Shown in pieces: positions 1-9,792 of a stretch of 9,792 bases of DNA. The notes below the pieces were generated by a model that saw only the letters and a list, made by a program, of their open reading frames with translations, was not told where the DNA came from and ran no database searches. The position numbers were made by a program, and so were the translations under genes. Source of the stretch: a virus. Its lineage: Duplodnaviria; Heunggongvirae; Uroviricota; Caudoviricetes. Positions within the stretch are counted from its first letter, which is position 1. Every line of letters starts with the position of its first letter. The DNA lies in IMG/VR virus record IMGVR_UViG_2606217116_000003; one strand, written 5' to 3'.

Positions 1-1164
1 TTACGCCTTCTTTATATCCTCCATAATTCCACAGTGGGACATATTTGGGACATTATCACCAAAAATGTCGTCTATTTTCCTTGCATGCTCTGTCAAATGA
101 TTAGGCGCAAGGTGAGCATACCTACGAACCATTTCTATGGACTCCCATCCGCCCATTTCCTGAAGCACAGATAATGGGACGCCTGACTGGATCAGCCAGC
201 TTGCCCAGGTGTGTCTGAGGTCATGGAAACGGAAATCTTCAATTCCTGCACGACGACAAGCTGATAGCCATGATGTCTTGCTGTCGATGCGCATCTTCCT
301 GACCGCAGGCGTTGATGTTCCATCTGCTCGCTTAGCCGCCTTGGTATGTACAAACACCCATTTGTGATGCTTGCCTATTTGATCACGCAACACTTTACAG
401 GCGGTATCGTTCAGCGCCACACCAATGGCGCGGTTTGATTTGCTCTCTTCTGGATTCACCCAGGCAACTCGTCGCTGCATGTCGATTTGTTGCCATTCCA
501 GATTTATGATGTTCGACTTTCTCAGACCAGTTGCCAGCGCAAACTTGACGACAGATTTCAGTGGTTCGGGGCACTCATCAATAAGGCGTTTTGCTTCCTC
601 CTTTTCCAGCCATCTGACTCGCTTGTTTCTGACCGCTGGTATCTTGATGACAGGCGCTTTTTCCAGCCACTTCCAGTCGCGTTCTGCAGCACGGAGAATG
701 GCCTTTATCATGGCAAGATGCTTTGCCTTTGTCTGAGTTGATACTGGCTTTGGTTCATAAACAGGCGGTTCTTTACCTTTCCTGATGGCGGCCTGAACTT
801 TCTGTTTCCATATTTCTTTCGTCTTTCTGTTATGCATTCTGCTTACAGCAGAGTAAATCTTTGCCTCCGAGATATCTTTAAGCCTTATACCCTCAAAATG
901 TTCAAGCCAGAACTCAATCCGGCTTTTATCTGAATCGAGAGATTTTTTATCAGCTTTTTCCTCAAGCCATCTTAGGCAGGCCTCTTCAAAAGTGACATCA
1001 GGTAAATCCCCTAGCTTTTCTACTCGCCAGAGTTCTGCTTTTCGCTTGTCGTGCAACTCCTGAGCTTGCCGCTTGTCCTTTGTGCCAAGAGATTCCTTAA
1101 TTCGTTTCCCGCCCGGGAGCGAATACGAGGCATACCATATTTCATTTCTGCGGAAGAGTGACAT
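1..1164 (-). CDS. int: Phage integrase, tyrosine recombinase (P22/DLP12-type lambdoid Int), 387 aa
   Basis: Full-length ORF from ATG at 1164 to stop at 1-3. Translation has the tyrosine-recombinase catalytic signature (R in ...ATGLRKSNI..., [11 protein letters not shown], ...VRRYAHL). N-terminus [23 protein letters not shown] matches recalled DLP12/P22-type integrases. Gene ends at the window edge, so att is off-window. Confidence 0.93.
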
Positions 1165-1391
1165 TTTCTTTCCTCTGTTATGCCATCACCCGCGCTCACC
1201 TGGACAGTATGCAGCGGAGACTGAAGCGCCGCAATGCAAGCTTGCCGTGTTGTGAGGTAAGGAGATTTTGGCTTGGTTGGATCTTTACGTGTTGCCTGTA
1301 GGCGGCCTGTTCGTATCCAGTTGGTGGCGGTTGGTCTGGATATCTTAAGAAACTGACAGGCCTCATCGAGTGTGAGGCTGTATGGCTCCAT
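1020..1391 (-). CDS. xis: Excisionase / recombination directionality factor (AlpA/Xis-like HTH)
   Basis: ATG at 1389-1391 preceded by GGTGA RBS. N-terminal [31 protein letters not shown] is a typical Xis/AlpA helix-turn-helix. Sits immediately upstream of int and overlaps it. The 3' end is uncertain because the ORF runs about 145 nt into int. Confidence 0.6.
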
Positions 1392-1696
1392 TATTTCACC
1401 TCTTGCTGTGTCATTGTTGAAAAATGGATACCAGCTCGTTGCTGCCAGACGATCCAACCGAGAGTCATATCCCATGCCATGTATTCGTTATCGCCGTTTT
1501 TTGCTCTCCGACGATCTACTAAGTCACCGAAACGCTTTTCCATGAATAATTCATAGGCTTCGCGTTCAACTGGCTCTACTTCCAGAGATACGAGTGCGAT
1601 TTCATAAGCACGGCGCTCAATATCGTCTCGAACCTCTAGGCTGCTGATTCGTTCTTTGATTTCTTTAATCAGTTCTTTATTGGTAAATGTGGTCAT
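1391..1696 (-). CDS. yfdT: Hypothetical prophage protein, YfdT-like (101 aa)
   Basis: 101-aa ORF whose stop overlaps the xis start (TAATG), indicating translational coupling. Length and position after a yfdS-like gene match the recalled CPS-53 yfdQRST arrangement. No function inferable from sequence. Confidence 0.55.
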   Translation of the reverse strand: MTTFTNKELIKEIKERISSLEVRDDIERRAYEIALVSLEVEPVEREAYELFMEKRFGDLVDRRRAKNGDNEYMAWDMTLGWIVWQQRAGIHFSTMTQQEVK

Positions 1697-2058
1697 TATG
1701 CTCCAGCCTCCGGTGCTTTTGGCATTACTGCCCAGTGAGTGATATTGACGTTTTCAAGGTCCCCGACCTGAAATGTCCACTGCCATTCTCCGGTTTCTTT
1801 TTGTCCCCAGGTGTACCAGAGAGAACGCCAGCCAATCAGCCAGCCTTCTCCATTAGCATCAAATAACAGAACACTTTCATTTGCTGGTGGCAGTTCAGCT
1901 GACACTGGTATTATTTTGTTTTCCAGTGCCGCACATTTAGCTTCAAGCGCGTCGAATTTACGTACCAGGTACTCAGCATTTGTTTCGTTCACTTTCAGAT
2001 CTCGCGGTACACATTTCCCGCGAAGAAACCCTTCCATTTCGAAAACATTCATGCGCAT
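1696..2058 (-). CDS. yfdS: DUF551-like phage protein, YfdS-like (120 aa)
   Basis: 120-aa ORF with the C-terminal W-rich motif ending ...NITHWAVMPKAPE typical of DUF551 phage proteins. Overlaps the upstream gene by 10 nt and abuts the downstream gene by 1 nt, consistent with an operon. Confidence 0.6.
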   Translation of the reverse strand: MRMNVFEMEGFLRGKCVPRDLKVNETNAEYLVRKFDALEAKCAALENKIIPVSAELPPANESVLLFDANGEGWLIGWRSLWYTWGQKETGEWQWTFQVGDLENVNITHWAVMPKAPEAGA

Positions 2059-2585
2059 TTGCGTAACTCCGATAAATCGTTAAAACGTTCCATAAACATC
2101 CCGTAGGCATGACCCGGTGCCAGTGGAATCACGTTGAACATCTCTGTTGCCGGGATGCCTTCCAGTACAGGCCAGAAAGAGCCATCATCAAGCCCGAGAT
2201 CGCGGCGTTCGGTTGCCAGCATGATGAGATCGGCATATTTCACGGGTGTACTCATAACTGGGGGTAACCCGTATTTCTCACGGATTACGGCGTCTATTTT
2301 TTCTTCCATCCGTTTATAGTCAGGAAGAAGGCGTTTCAGTGGTGCGGGAATGTCCTGGCAATACGCTTCTGTTGCATCATGCATTAACGCTTCAAAAGCA
2401 AATTCCTGCGGCACCAGCTGGCTGCAAAGAACCGCATGTTGGGCGACGCTGTAGAAGTGCGAAAGATGACCGGCAAAGCGACAGATATTTGAAAGGGAAA
2501 CCGCGATATCGTTAATATCGATGTCGTCTTTATTTATCTTGTCATAATAAAAATGCTTCCCGGAAAAAGTTTTAATAAATGACAT
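2049..2585 (-). CDS. yfdR: HD-domain phosphohydrolase, YfdR-like (putative 5'-deoxynucleotidase), 178 aa
   Basis: Likely true start is the internal ATG at 2583-2585 (MSFIKTFSGKHF...) preceded by a GGAGAA RBS, not the track start at 2612. HD motif is visible (...FEALMHDATEAYCQD...). Recalled as near-identical to E. coli YfdR. Confidence 0.8.
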   Translation of the reverse strand: MSFIKTFSGKHFYYDKINKDDIDINDIAVSLSNICRFAGHLSHFYSVAQHAVLCSQLVPQEFAFEALMHDATEAYCQDIPAPLKRLLPDYKRMEEKIDAVIREKYGLPPVMSTPVKYADLIMLATERRDLGLDDGSFWPVLEGIPATEMFNVIPLAPGHAYGMFMERFNDLSELRKCA

Positions 2586-2712
2586 TTTGTTCTCCACGTA
2601 TATGCACTGCACCGCGCTGAATTCTGGTAAAAGGAAGCCCTCACCATCCGGCGATTATTGAGTTAATTACGTTTCCATAAATGCCCCCGCAGGGGCATTT
2701 GCAGTAATGAAA

Positions 2713-3276
2713 TCAGGCGGTGAAAGTACCAATAAAGGTTTCTACTTTGCTGTCTTTGAATTTCTCAACAAGCAGATCACGAAATTCGTTAGCCATTTCT
2801 TCCTGCACCGCTTCCAGCTGAATAATGCGCAGAACCAGTACAGGACGATCGCCAGTGATAATGCTGAGGCGTAATTTAAACGGACGTTCTTTCAGACCTT
2901 CAAACGGAACGCATTTAAATTCAAATGCCACTGGCATAATGTCTTTGGTCTTCGCTTCGACAGACTCCATCAGGGAGCGTTTGCCGCTGAAGTCATTATC
3001 TTCAAAATCAGCGGTCTGGTTTGCTTCAATCGTGATTTTACGGACTGCCGCAGCCGCTTTTGTTGCCTGAATGGCGTCACCATTAGCATCAAAGCCCACA
3101 AGGTAGTCGGCCCAGTCTTCGATCCATTCTGCCAGTGACTTCTGGGAGTTACGCTCGCCGTTAACAGACAACAGAGCAGAGAACGGTGCTGTCTTTTTCA
3201 GTTTGAGAGTGGCAGTGTTATCTGCGTGACCTGGCTCATCAATAGTACCCAGGTTAAGCACACTGACGGCACGCAT
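2713..3276 (-). CDS. yfdQ: YfdQ-like (DUF2303-family) prophage protein, probably 5'-truncated
   Basis: ORF from the first ATG at 3276. The same frame stays open about 71 codons further upstream with no ATG/GTG/TTG and crosses the Q start on the other strand. This implies the gene lost its 5' end at a deletion junction. Confidence 0.55.
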
Positions 3277-3443
3277 ATTATCGGCATCGATAAAGCAGCG
3301 GGTGCCTTCATCTGCAAGATCTTTAGAATAACGGGTACCGTGGCATTTGAAGAGAAGTATGGCTCCCAGCTGGAGCTGATATTTCGTTTTATCGATCGCG
3401 CACTGGCGATTGGTGTGCTGGCCTGATTTTGTGGAGAAAGTTA

Positions 3444-3827
3444 ATGCGTGATATTCAGATGGTTCTTGAACGTTGGGGAGCGTGGGCGGCTAATAATCAT
3501 GAAGATGTGACCTGGTCGTCCATTGCCGCCGGTTTTAAGGGATTAATTCCTTCAAAAGTAAAATCTCGCCCGCAATGTTGTGACGATGACGCGATGATCA
3601 TTTGCGGGTGCATGGCCCGTCTGAAAAAGAACAACAGCGATTTGCACGATTTATTAGTAGATTATTATGTAGTCGGTATGACATTCATGTCACTGGCAGG
3701 TAAGCATTGCTGCTCTGATGGTTATATCGGGAAAAGGTTACAGAAGGCTGAGGGCATAATTGAAGGGATGTTAATGGCATTAGATATCCGGTTAGAGATG
3801 GATATCGTTGTTAATAACTCTAATTAA
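3444..3827 (+). CDS. quuD: Late-gene antiterminator Q (DLP12 QuuD-like, 127 aa)
   Basis: ATG at 3444 with GGAGAAAG RBS; the track's TTG at 3429 is rejected as the start. Small Cys-rich protein ([12 protein letters not shown]...HCCSDGY) recalled as matching DLP12 Q. Position immediately upstream of the late/lysis region fits. Confidence 0.75.
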
Positions 3828-3860
3828 TATGCCAATTGTTTACTAAAAATTATTAAAAAT

Positions 3861-3878
3861 GGGGCGTTGAGACGCCCC
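3861..3878 (-). terminator. Intrinsic terminator for leftward transcription (porin transcript end)
   Basis: Perfect 7-bp stem GGGGCGT/ACGCCCC with a 4-nt loop. On the minus strand it is followed by a U-rich run (AUUUUUAAUAAUUUUU). It lies between the convergent Q and porin genes. Confidence 0.5.
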
Positions 3879-4015
3879 CAAAAATAAAGGGTAATATATA
3901 ACAGAAGGTTTATATAGTTAGAAGCAAGGTTGTGCTTCTAAAGGAAGTGGCTGGAGGGACCATTTATATGTGGGGGAGCCACCCCCCCCCGCAACATATC
4001 TTTTTCGTAATCAGA

Positions 4016-5113
4016 TTAGAACTGGTAAACCAGACCTACAGCAACGATGTCATCAGTGCTTACACCGAGTGCTTTAGTGAAGTCATTTTTGTCAAGCAGG
4101 TTGATTTTGTAATCAACGAAAGTAGACATATTTTTGTTGAAGTAATAGGTTGCACCTACATCAACATATTTGACTAAGTCCTGATCGCCCCATACTCCAA
4201 GATCCTTACCTTTAGATTGCAGGTAAGCAACGGACGGACGCAGACCGAAATCGAACTGATATTGTGCAACAGCTTCGAAGTTTTGGGCTTTATTAGCAAC
4301 GAAGTGATCAGCAAATACAGTCATATTCTGGGTTTCAGAATAGGTAGTGGCCAGGTAAATGTTGTTAGCGTCATATTTCAGACCTGCGGCCCAAACTTCT
4401 GCATTTTTACCGGAAGCAAATACTTCAGGAAGAACTTTCCCTGCATTAACTTGAGTGTCGGTACGATCAGATTTCGCATAAGTTGCACCGATACCGAATC
4501 CTTCGTATTCATAGGTAGCAGAGAAACCGAAGCCATCACCGTTACCTTCAGTGTAGTTATCGAAATCGCTACGATCGTTTTTGCCTTGGTACTGAGCAGC
4601 AAAGTTCAGACCATCAACCAGACCAAAGAAGTCGTTGTTACGATAGGTTGCAACACCAGTGGTGCGACCAGTCATGAACACATCTGTTTGGGTCCAGGTA
4701 TCGCCACCGAATTCTGGCAGAACGTCAGTCCACGCACCGATGTCGTATGCTACACCGTAGTTACGGCCGTAATCGATTGAGCCGTAGTCACCGAATTTCA
4801 GGCCTGCAAATGCAAGACGGGTTTTGTCTTTGGAGGAACCTTGAGATTCAGCGCGGTTGCCTTTGAATTCATATTCCCACTGACCGAAACCAGTCAGTTG
4901 ATCGTTGATTTGGGTTTCACCTTTGAAGCCAAGACGGGCATAAGTAGTATCACCATCATCTGCATCATTAGAGGAGAAGTAGTGCTTAGCATTAACTTTC
5001 CCGTACAGATCCAGCTTGTTACTGTCTTTATTATAAATTTCAGCTGCCTGAGCAGACATCGCCATCAGTACTGATGCAGCTACAGCAGAAATTGCCACTG
5101 TTAATTTTTTCAT
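4016..5113 (-). CDS. nmpC: Outer-membrane general porin, NmpC/Lc (OmpC/OmpD family), prophage moron, 365 aa
   Basis: True start is [23 protein letters not shown] (signal peptide) at ATG 5111-5113; the track's upstream start at 5173 adds 20 aa with no signal-peptide logic. Classic porin motifs and C-terminal ...VGLVYQF. Appears intact. Confidence 0.9.
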
Positions 5114-5540
5114 CGTGAGCCCTTTTTTTGAACTATTATTAAAAAATGATGTCACTGCGCGATAAATATTCATCTAATCAATGTGATTATTTCAAGATGT
5201 AAGTTTTGGTTTCTCGTTTGATTTGTGAAGTAGATCTCTATTTTTATCTGAACTTTTTTCTATCGAATCCTATTCATAGCTCTTTGCTGAATAAAAATAA
5301 ATCTATTAGCCAATTTATATTAACGGCTGTTATTTATAAGCGCTCTATAATTTGAAGGTTCAATTTAAATAAGCTAAAAATAACACTGGAAATAATTTGT
5401 TGGTTATTTGTTGAGATTTGCTTATGTATTTGTAGTGGTGTTTTCAATACTCGGTAGCATTCTCGCAAATATCATTTAGTGGTTTACGTACGTAAAAAAT
5501 TGGTTATGCTGTTAAGAGTGGTTACTTCGTCACACAGCTT

Positions 5541-5901: not shown

Positions 5902-6125
5902 TGTCGCCATCATTACGCAAGGCTGTAGCAGCTGCTATTGGTGGTGGGGCTGTTGCCATAGCGTCTGTGCTCATCACTGGTCCGAGTGGTGACGATGGTC
6001 TGGAAGGTGTCAGCTACATACCATATAAAGATATTGTTGGTGTATGGACTGTATGTCACGGGCATAACCGCGATTATCTCCGCTCTGGTTATCTGCATCA
6101 TCGTCGGCCTGTCATGGGCTGTTAA
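5901..6125 (+). pseudogene. R: SAR-endolysin (R21-like lysozyme) remnant: N-terminal SAR domain and catalytic-triad region only
   Basis: First about 55 codons ([55 protein letters not shown]) match a SAR endolysin N-terminus. The reading frame then runs out of frame into Rz-derived sequence and stops at 6125. The C-terminal lobe of the enzyme is absent. Confidence 0.75.
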
Positions 6126-6547: not shown

Positions 6548-6841
6548 TTATTGTGAGCAATACACACGCGCTTCCAGCGGAGTATAAATGCCTAAAGTAA
6601 TAAAACCGAGCAATCCATTTACGAATGTTTGCTGGGTTTCTGTTTTAACAACATTTTCTGCGCCGCCACAAATTTTGGCTGCATCAACAGTTTTCTCCTG
6701 TCCAATTCCCGAAACGAAGAAGTGATGGGTGATGGTTTCCTTTGGTGTTACTGCTGTCGGTTTGTTTCCAACAGTAAACGTCTGTTGAGCACATCCTGTA
6801 ATAAGCATTGCCAGAGCGGCAGAAAACAACATTTTTTTCAT
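6548..6841 (-). CDS. bor: Bor lipoprotein (serum-resistance-associated, Iss family), 97 aa
   Basis: True start is the internal MKKMLFSAALAMLITGC (lipobox) at about 6841, not the track start at 6889. Remainder matches recalled lambda Bor (...ETITHHFFVSGIGQ...LEARVYCSQ). Confidence 0.9.
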   Translation of the reverse strand: MKKMLFSAALAMLITGCAQQTFTVGNKPTAVTPKETITHHFFVSGIGQEKTVDAAKICGGAENVVKTETQQTFVNGLLGFITLGIYTPLEARVYCSQ

Positions 6842-7200
6842 CTTATTATCCTGCATTGTTAAAAACGGCAGAATCCTATGTGACAACAATTAAACGATAG
6901 TTAAATGGATTGATGAAAATTAAAACTATATAGGTGGATGCTCAGCCTATTGGAGGAGGGGGGCACTCAGAATCCTGTGGAATGAAATAAACCGCTCTTT
7001 CTGTCCATTACCCTTTTAGCTGCGCTGTATCGTCGCCGTATTCCCGCATTAACCATGACCGTAGCCCGACGGGGAATTCCTTCTGCGTGAGTGTGCGGGA
7101 ATAATCAAAAACGATGCACACCGGGTTTTACTGTGCTGACAGACGCAGGGTTACCCTCATAGTCGCTTTTCCGGTGCGATGGTGGAAGAAACCGGGATGT

Positions 7201-8329: not shown

Positions 8330-9792
<1,463 letters not shown>

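Follow-up and report, generated by a model that had tools for sequence, protein, structure and literature searches.

Organization of the locus

The 9,792-nt stretch analysed here (the window) originates from an Escherichia coli chromosome, and its positions 1100-3900 match ~15 complete genomes, among them that of strain KSC9, at 100% identity. One end is occupied by an intD-type tyrosine integrase gene (1-1164, minus strand; 387 aa; Pfam Phage_integrase, E=5.5e-47), and the annotation of identical DNA places this gene, as intD, beside a tRNA-Arg gene and fimZ. An open excisionase reading frame of the P22/SfV type follows on the same strand (1020-1391, 123 codons); it matches HTH_17 (E=1.2e-8) and can be aligned with the Xis protein of phage SfV. 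PGAP marks xis only at 1326-1391, as a partial gene. Beyond xis, again on the minus strand, lie open reading frames at 1391-1696, 1696-2058, 2049-2585/2612 and 2713-3276, which correspond to yfdT, yfdS, yfdR and yfdQ, respectively. The yfdQ-yfdT genes of the K-12 prophage CPS-53 (KplE1) align by blastn with window positions 1338-3337 at 98.05% DNA identity over 2,000 nt, and the encoded proteins are 97-100% identical. The preliminary description, made from the sequence, had proposed yfdQRST-like genes next to int and xis, and the near-identical K-12 proteins with the adjoining xis-int pair bear this out. Family matches in profile searches are far above chance (DUF2303, E=2e-61; PHROG, E from 1e-31 to 1e-110). 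On the opposite (plus) strand, positions 3331-3827 hold a fragment of a DUF968 gene (3331-3426) and the antiterminator gene quuD (3444-3827; Phage_antitermQ, E=1e-53), both identified by the annotation of identical DNA.

The order, strand and spacing of the genes (a 127-nt gap, a 10-nt overlap and a 1-nt overlap) are the same as in K-12 yfdQRST. The yfdR stop and the yfdS start overlap by 10 nt (2058-2049), the yfdS stop and the yfdT start overlap by 1 nt within a TAATG (1698-1694), and another TAATG (1393-1389) is common to the yfdT stop and the xis start. GGAG-type ribosome-binding sites precede yfdR, yfdS and yfdT, and a GAGG precedes xis. Thus, of the four tightly packed, translationally coupled genes described earlier, the tight junctions of yfdR, yfdS, yfdT and xis stand, but yfdQ is set apart: because a 127-nt spacer with a 9-bp hairpin separates them, yfdQ is not translationally coupled to yfdR. 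The hairpin (AAAUGCCCC-UGCG-GGGGCAUUU; 2679-2700, minus strand) begins 13 nt past the yfdQ stop codon and is present in the centroid of the predicted fold. A terminator scan does not call it, as it has no T-run, and it may be either a weak terminator or an RNA-stabilising structure. The spacer as a whole folds no better than shuffled sequence (z = -1.58), and an Rfam search of the region returned no match.

Three of the reading frames are intact. The yfdR gene (2049-2585) encodes a 178-aa HD-domain protein that is identical to K-12 YfdR at 177 of 178 positions, the sole difference being V23D. The ATG at 2585 is the more likely start, backed by the upstream GGAG and by RefSeq; the alternative GTG at 2612 is the start given by a mechanical listing of reading frames. 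The product of yfdS (1696-2058, 120 aa) consists of a helical N-terminal segment and, after it, a DUF551 domain, and is identical to K-12 YfdS over all 120 residues. Its DUF551 score passes marginally (22.2 against a cut-off of 22 bits), with support from the match to phrog_583 (E=1e-82). The third, yfdT (1391-1696, 101 aa), shares 98 of 101 residues with its K-12 counterpart and matches phrog_660 (E=4e-31).

Truncation of yfdQ by a 1,628-bp deletion

The 2713-3276 reading frame had been taken for the fourth gene. However, the frame stays open upstream of the ATG at 3276, as far as 3336, and alignment to K-12 shows that what remains (2713-3336, minus strand) is codons 68-274 of the 274-codon yfdQ, with 205 of 207 residues identical. 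Both family matches are partial, covering positions 84-269 of the 269 in the DUF2303 profile (at the E-value given above) and positions 67-274 of the 274 in phrog_210. The ATG at 3276 is the internal Met88 and is not preceded by a Shine-Dalgarno sequence, and the annotation of identical DNA at NCBI (PGAP) lists a pseudogene missing its N-terminus. By its alignments, the remnant is a member of the DUF2303/YfdQ family by descent, but a 5'-truncated one.

The cause is visible in strain 13TMH22, where the locus is undeleted. Compared with this strain, the window is without 1,628 bp, which in 13TMH22 contain yfdQ codons 1-67, yfdP, two hypothetical genes and part of the DUF968 gene fragment. The blastn breakpoints and the annotation of the undeleted locus place the junction at 3333-3337, with 5 bp of microhomology; 19 of 5,426 complete E. 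coli genomes carry the same junction. After the deletion, the DUF968 fragment and quuD, on the opposite strand, directly adjoin what is left of yfdQ. The lost N-terminus contains the invariant RFRFRG region of YfdQ and other invariant positions, as a whole R52, R54-G57, T61, S63, I64, D66 and F67; in the predicted model it also contains a helix (7-28) and the first strand (58-61).

The deletion would also have removed all upstream transcription signals. A promoter scan found no sigma-70 consensus promoter on the minus strand between 3336 and 1391; a 10/12 match lies at 3693-3664 on this strand, and the total is at chance level (5 found, 4.1 expected). Read-through into yfdRST from an unrecognised promoter, such as the 3693-3664 match, is possible. 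Since yfdQ is truncated and the region upstream is gone, the four-gene operon proposed in the preliminary description is not supported. Most likely, this copy is a remnant with intact yfdR, yfdS and yfdT only, and it has either no function or, at most, weak expression.

Host prophage and phage relatives

In the matching genomes the annotated order is intD, a partial HTH gene, yfdT, a 'phage protein', yfdR, a partial DUF2303 gene, a partial DUF968 gene, quuD, a porin gene, essD, a partial lysozyme gene, rzpD, iss/bor, ylcI and nohD. This is a heavily deleted cryptic prophage of the DLP12 type, located at tRNA-Arg in E. coli. Its content (quuD, porin, essD, bor, nohD) is unlike that of CPS-53. 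The flanks of the yfd genes also differ: in the window they are a P22/SfV-type xis and intD at tRNA-Arg (an argU-type site), whereas in CPS-53 they are torI and intS at argW. The window in addition has neither the first 67 codons of yfdQ nor yfdP. Elsewhere in the same prophage, 343 bp are deleted inside rrrD, ybcV-ybcW are lost and an IS3-family element is inserted in the terminase gene; these additional deletions and the insertion show general decay.

The same block is carried by isolated phages. Window DNA is 94% identical to SfV orf31-28 plus xis, and 97-99.7% identical to the corresponding block of PhiR29_1, Kati and SfIV. All four share the yfdQ-R-S-T-xis-int arrangement, but they are complete phages with full-length yfdQ, yfdP and an upstream cI region, whereas the window has only the distal part. 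In SfV the order is cI, orf33, orf32 (yfdP), orf31 (yfdQ), orf30 (yfdR), orf29 (yfdS), orf28 (yfdT), xis, int, so that in this intact phage the genes are co-oriented and placed in the early-left region between cI and xis; in the window, the xis-proximal side is the sole part of this region to survive. The identity to the four phages shows, on sequence grounds, that the region corresponds to the xis-proximal (distal) end of an early-left operon, (yfdP)-yfdQ-yfdR-yfdS-yfdT-xis-int, from a temperate phage of the SfV/P22 kind.

The ratio of non-synonymous to synonymous differences between copies (pN/pS) is 0-0.22 for yfdR, yfdS and the retained part of yfdQ. For yfdT it is 0.145 against SfV and 0.785 against K-12, the latter derived from only 4 differences. 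The low values show that the genes were functional during their phage history.

Conservation of the gene set

The four genes had been suggested to be conserved as a unit across prophages. A scan of one genome per species for yfdR relatives gave 80 loci, whose flanks were searched; 77 have enough upstream DNA to be counted. Genes yfdP, yfdQ and yfdR occur in fixed order and spacing in 37 of these 77 (48%), across Enterobacterales genera. Another 13 loci have an RdgC-family gene upstream of yfdR, and further ones have a gene for a 238-aa protein or a repressor-like gene. Downstream, the commonest neighbour encodes an unrelated 188-aa protein, and full-length yfdS and yfdT are present at two E. 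coli loci only. In phage records, too, yfdQ-yfdR is the constant pair, whereas yfdS is partial and yfdT varies. Outside E. coli and Shigella phages the four genes do not stay together, and the claim fails in this form. The evolutionarily stable unit is yfdP-yfdQ-yfdR, with yfdS and yfdT as swappable cargo of the DUF551 type. Gene types yfdR, yfdQ and yfdP are common in lambdoid early-left operons according to a 2025 survey, which lists yfdQ and yfdP as being without known function (PMC12315714). The stable unit narrows the choice of partners for studies of mechanism.

Both YfdS and YfdT belong to the fast-swapping Ead/Ea22/DUF551 group of mosaic cargo proteins, which in lambdoid phages occupy the region between exo and xis (PMC10834534). 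YfdS resembles them in its helical N-terminus and DUF551 domain; YfdT resembles them in its N-terminal part but has no DUF551. Since the first ~95 and the last 4 residues (QEVK) of YfdT match the two ends of 173-177-aa proteins that carry DUF551 in the middle, YfdT looks like a derivative of a longer protein after loss of this domain. Plain paralogy as the basis of the reported YfdS/YfdT redundancy was considered and rejected, as the two proteins show no significant pairwise similarity (E=0.32).

YfdR and the HD superfamily

The metal-binding H...HD...D motif of HD phosphohydrolases is present in YfdR (H50, H69-D70, D119), and none of H50, H69-D70, E73, D78 and D119 varies among 14 homologues with identities down to 65%. 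The protein had been called an HD-domain enzyme of the 5'-deoxynucleotidase type. The HD assignment with its invariant motif stands, but the enzymatic label is weak. Pfam HD_3 and YfbR-like matches are weak, with the latter (PF12917) below threshold (24.1 bits, cut-off 25.9), and the NCBIfam YfbR equivalog NF003009 scores far below its cut-off (19.9 bits, cut-off 122). E. coli YfbR, itself an HD-domain 5'-deoxynucleotidase, is of the same superfamily, and an HDxxE...D.P.P.K motif tentatively aligns between the two (hhalign probability 44%, E=2.3e-4). However, a dNMP phosphatase activity of YfdR is reported as low-affinity, its nucleotide affinity being far under that of YfbR (PMC4776307, citing Zimmerman 2008), and YfdR also binds DnaA. 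The closest solved relative, alignable over nearly the full length, is Atu1052 of Agrobacterium tumefaciens (PDB 2gz4; phmmer E=3.7e-14; Foldseek probability 1.00, E=2.7e-5), which adds no mechanism. A structure search with a YfdR model of mediocre quality (pLDDT 66) retrieved only this entry and not YfbR. By its motif, YfdR is a member of the HD superfamily and a distant cousin of YfbR only.

Function of the module

A shared role of these genes had been described as still uncharacterised, but a function has been published for the K-12 copy. Noguchi and Katayama (2016, PMC4776307) isolated the yfdQRST genes through their multicopy suppression of hda-185, the minimal set being yfdQ and yfdR with either yfdS or yfdT. 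In extra copies the genes inhibit oriC initiation, both in the wild type and in over-initiating mutants, and YfdR binds DnaA in a manner dependent on Phe46 of domain I (PMC4776307). Deletion of yfdQRST from K-12 has no effect on initiation and no phenotype in normal growth, and homologues in SfV were noted by the same authors (PMC4776307). In a later paper, YfdR figures as an inhibitor of prophage origin in competition with DnaB (PMC12122000). Small proteins that likewise bind DnaA and interfere with initiation include lambda P, Bacillus subtilis SirA and E. coli DiaA, the likeness being functional. SirA and DiaA use the same surface of DnaA domain I (Phe46/Phe49) as YfdR (PMC4776307), whereas lambda P binds domain III.

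For proteins 97-100% identical to those of the window, it is published that YfdR binds DnaA domain I around Phe46 and is a moderate competitor of both DiaA and the DnaB helicase (PMC4776307; PMC12122000), and that yfdQ and yfdR with yfdS or yfdT, in multicopy, block oriC initiation. The YfdR encoded here, with V23D as its sole difference, would be expected to behave likewise. In a live phage, the module may damp initiation of the host chromosome early after infection or induction. Restraint of host initiation through binding of YfdR to DnaA domain I is the most likely mechanism of the module. The 1,628-bp deletion would then have left a remnant copy, predicted to be crippled because the published phenotype needed yfdQ. 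Having lost both yfdQ and the control region upstream of it, this copy probably cannot restrain initiation. The complete explanation, i.e. an early-left operon end whose YfdR-DnaA interaction damps initiation, preserved here as a crippled relic, has moderate confidence. The DnaA effect has been seen solely under overexpression, which counts against it, and Noguchi and Katayama themselves allowed for an overexpression artefact (PMC4776307).

Alternatively, as the preliminary description suggested for the enzyme, YfdR could mainly be a 5'-deoxynucleotidase that removes phosphate from dNMPs and reshapes nucleotide pools for the phage; binding to DnaA would then be incidental to overexpression. 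The residues for metal binding and catalysis at the HD site do not vary among the 14 homologues, which points to an enzymatic role beyond DnaA binding; the motif aligns with YfbR, PHROG labels the family 'deoxyribonucleoside 5' monophosphate phosphatase' (E=5e-110) and RefSeq names the gene 5'-deoxynucleotidase. However, YfdR stays under both YfbR cut-offs, its closest solved structure has no assigned function, and the need for yfdQ and for yfdS or yfdT in the phenotype is left unexplained. This makes a nucleotide-pool enzyme rather unlikely as the main role.

A further reading, distinctly unlikely as a whole, takes the conserved early module of temperate phages across Enterobacterales to be the three genes yfdP-yfdQ-yfdR, not yfdQRST, with a native target that may be other than DnaA. 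YfdQ would contribute a fold of its own and form a large homo-oligomer, YfdR would be catalytic through its HD site, DnaA binding would be partial or a side effect, and yfdRST in the relic would keep a YfdQ-independent activity. A sequence search links YfdQ to PDB 9o7m ('YfdQ Protein', 36 chains, E=4e-44), a homologue that is not mentioned in the literature searched. A structure search with the YfdQ model gave no recognisable fold relative in a fold library that does not contain 9o7m.

A very small probability is given to a stress module beneficial to the host, in which the genes are kept for survival of oxidative or DNA damage, e.g. by slower initiation under stress. Deletions of yfdQ and yfdS are cited as H2O2-sensitive and that of yfdQ as MMS-sensitive (Wang 2010 / Rooney 2009, as cited in PMC4776307), and yfdR is very widespread in E. 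coli, with a single 90%-identity cluster of 5,391 members. The reported phenotypes are weak, however, and presence in active phages is enough to explain the prevalence; with yfdQ destroyed here and several other deletions in the prophage, there is no sign of selection on the module. An anti-defence role, put forward in the preliminary description, or another early takeover function of yfdP-yfdQ-yfdR with a target other than DnaA, is equally doubtful: an order and spacing that 37 of 77 loci keep across genera of Enterobacterales, the early-left accessory location (SfV; PMC12315714), the YfdQ model without fold relatives and the recent 36-chain structure of its homologue are consistent with it, but PADLOC, which covers defence systems and not anti-defence genes, gave no match at E<=0.01, and the literature search found no paper linking the genes to defence.

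The genes are already known: they have names, are carried by thousands of E. coli genomes as well as by isolated phages, and an activity related to DnaA has been published for them. The stretch is an ordinary relic with named, partly studied prophage genes and holds no new system. Its discovery value is small, and it adds nothing special on the enzymology of the HD site or on the roles of YfdP and YfdQ. The lineage does provide a natural yfdQ-truncation allele, which could serve as a control for YfdR acting alone.

Junction between yfdT and xis

The P22/SfV-type xis gene begins directly 3' of yfdT, and its first 53 nt are retained at the same place in CPS-53, the K-12 cryptic prophage that also carries yfdQRST (L003 positions 12180-12232; window 1338-1391). 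In K-12 this remnant lies within the annotated ypdJ, ahead of torI. CPS-53 therefore formerly had the yfdT-xis junction seen in the window, and its recombination module is a later replacement. On DNA identical to the window, RefSeq annotates only a 66-nt xis pseudogene fragment, whereas an open frame of 123 codons spans window 1020-1391. The Xis protein of the intact phage SfV can be aligned with this frame, except for the C-terminal third, which is divergent.

Proteins of the yfd genes and their neighbours

YfdT (window 1391-1696) corresponds to the ~95 N-terminal residues plus the terminal QEVK of DUF551-containing proteins of 173-177 aa (P0269, P0271, and P0305), and thus looks like a product of in-frame loss of the DUF551 domain. 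For the yfdQ stump (window 2713-3336), a homologue has a solved structure in a single entry, PDB 9o7m ('YfdQ Protein'), for which a literature search found no accompanying paper. The entry contains 36 chains of 274 aa, suggesting that the YfdQ homologue forms a large homo-oligomer. Upstream of yfdR, an RdgC-family gene replaces yfdP-yfdQ in 13 of 77 loci from other species (L008 and 12 more), which hints that yfdR is partnered with differing DNA-metabolism genes. The top promoter-like match of the region (GTGACA-18-CATAAT, 10/12; window 3693-3664, minus strand) is antisense within quuD and directed at the yfdQ stump, the total count of such matches in the region being at chance level.

Prophage decay and flanking genes

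Relative to E. coli strain 13TMH22, a 343-bp deletion at window 6061-6065 has removed the 3' part of rrrD (lysozyme) and the start of rzpD, and 289 nt (window 6895-7184) stand in place of a ybcV-ybcW segment of ~1.3 kb; both changes add to the evidence for prophage decay. Within window 8540-9792, the terminase large-subunit gene 3' of nohD is broken by an IS3-family element, which includes an IS911-like orfA (window 8597-8944) and a match to isrC (window 8629-8751, 150 bits, Rfam). The exact terminase/IS junction was found in none of the complete E. coli genomes in the collection. An iss/bor lipoprotein gene occupies window 6548-6889. The nmpC/ompD-type porin gene (window 4016-5173) is intact; nmpC of the K-12 prophage DLP12 is interrupted by IS5.
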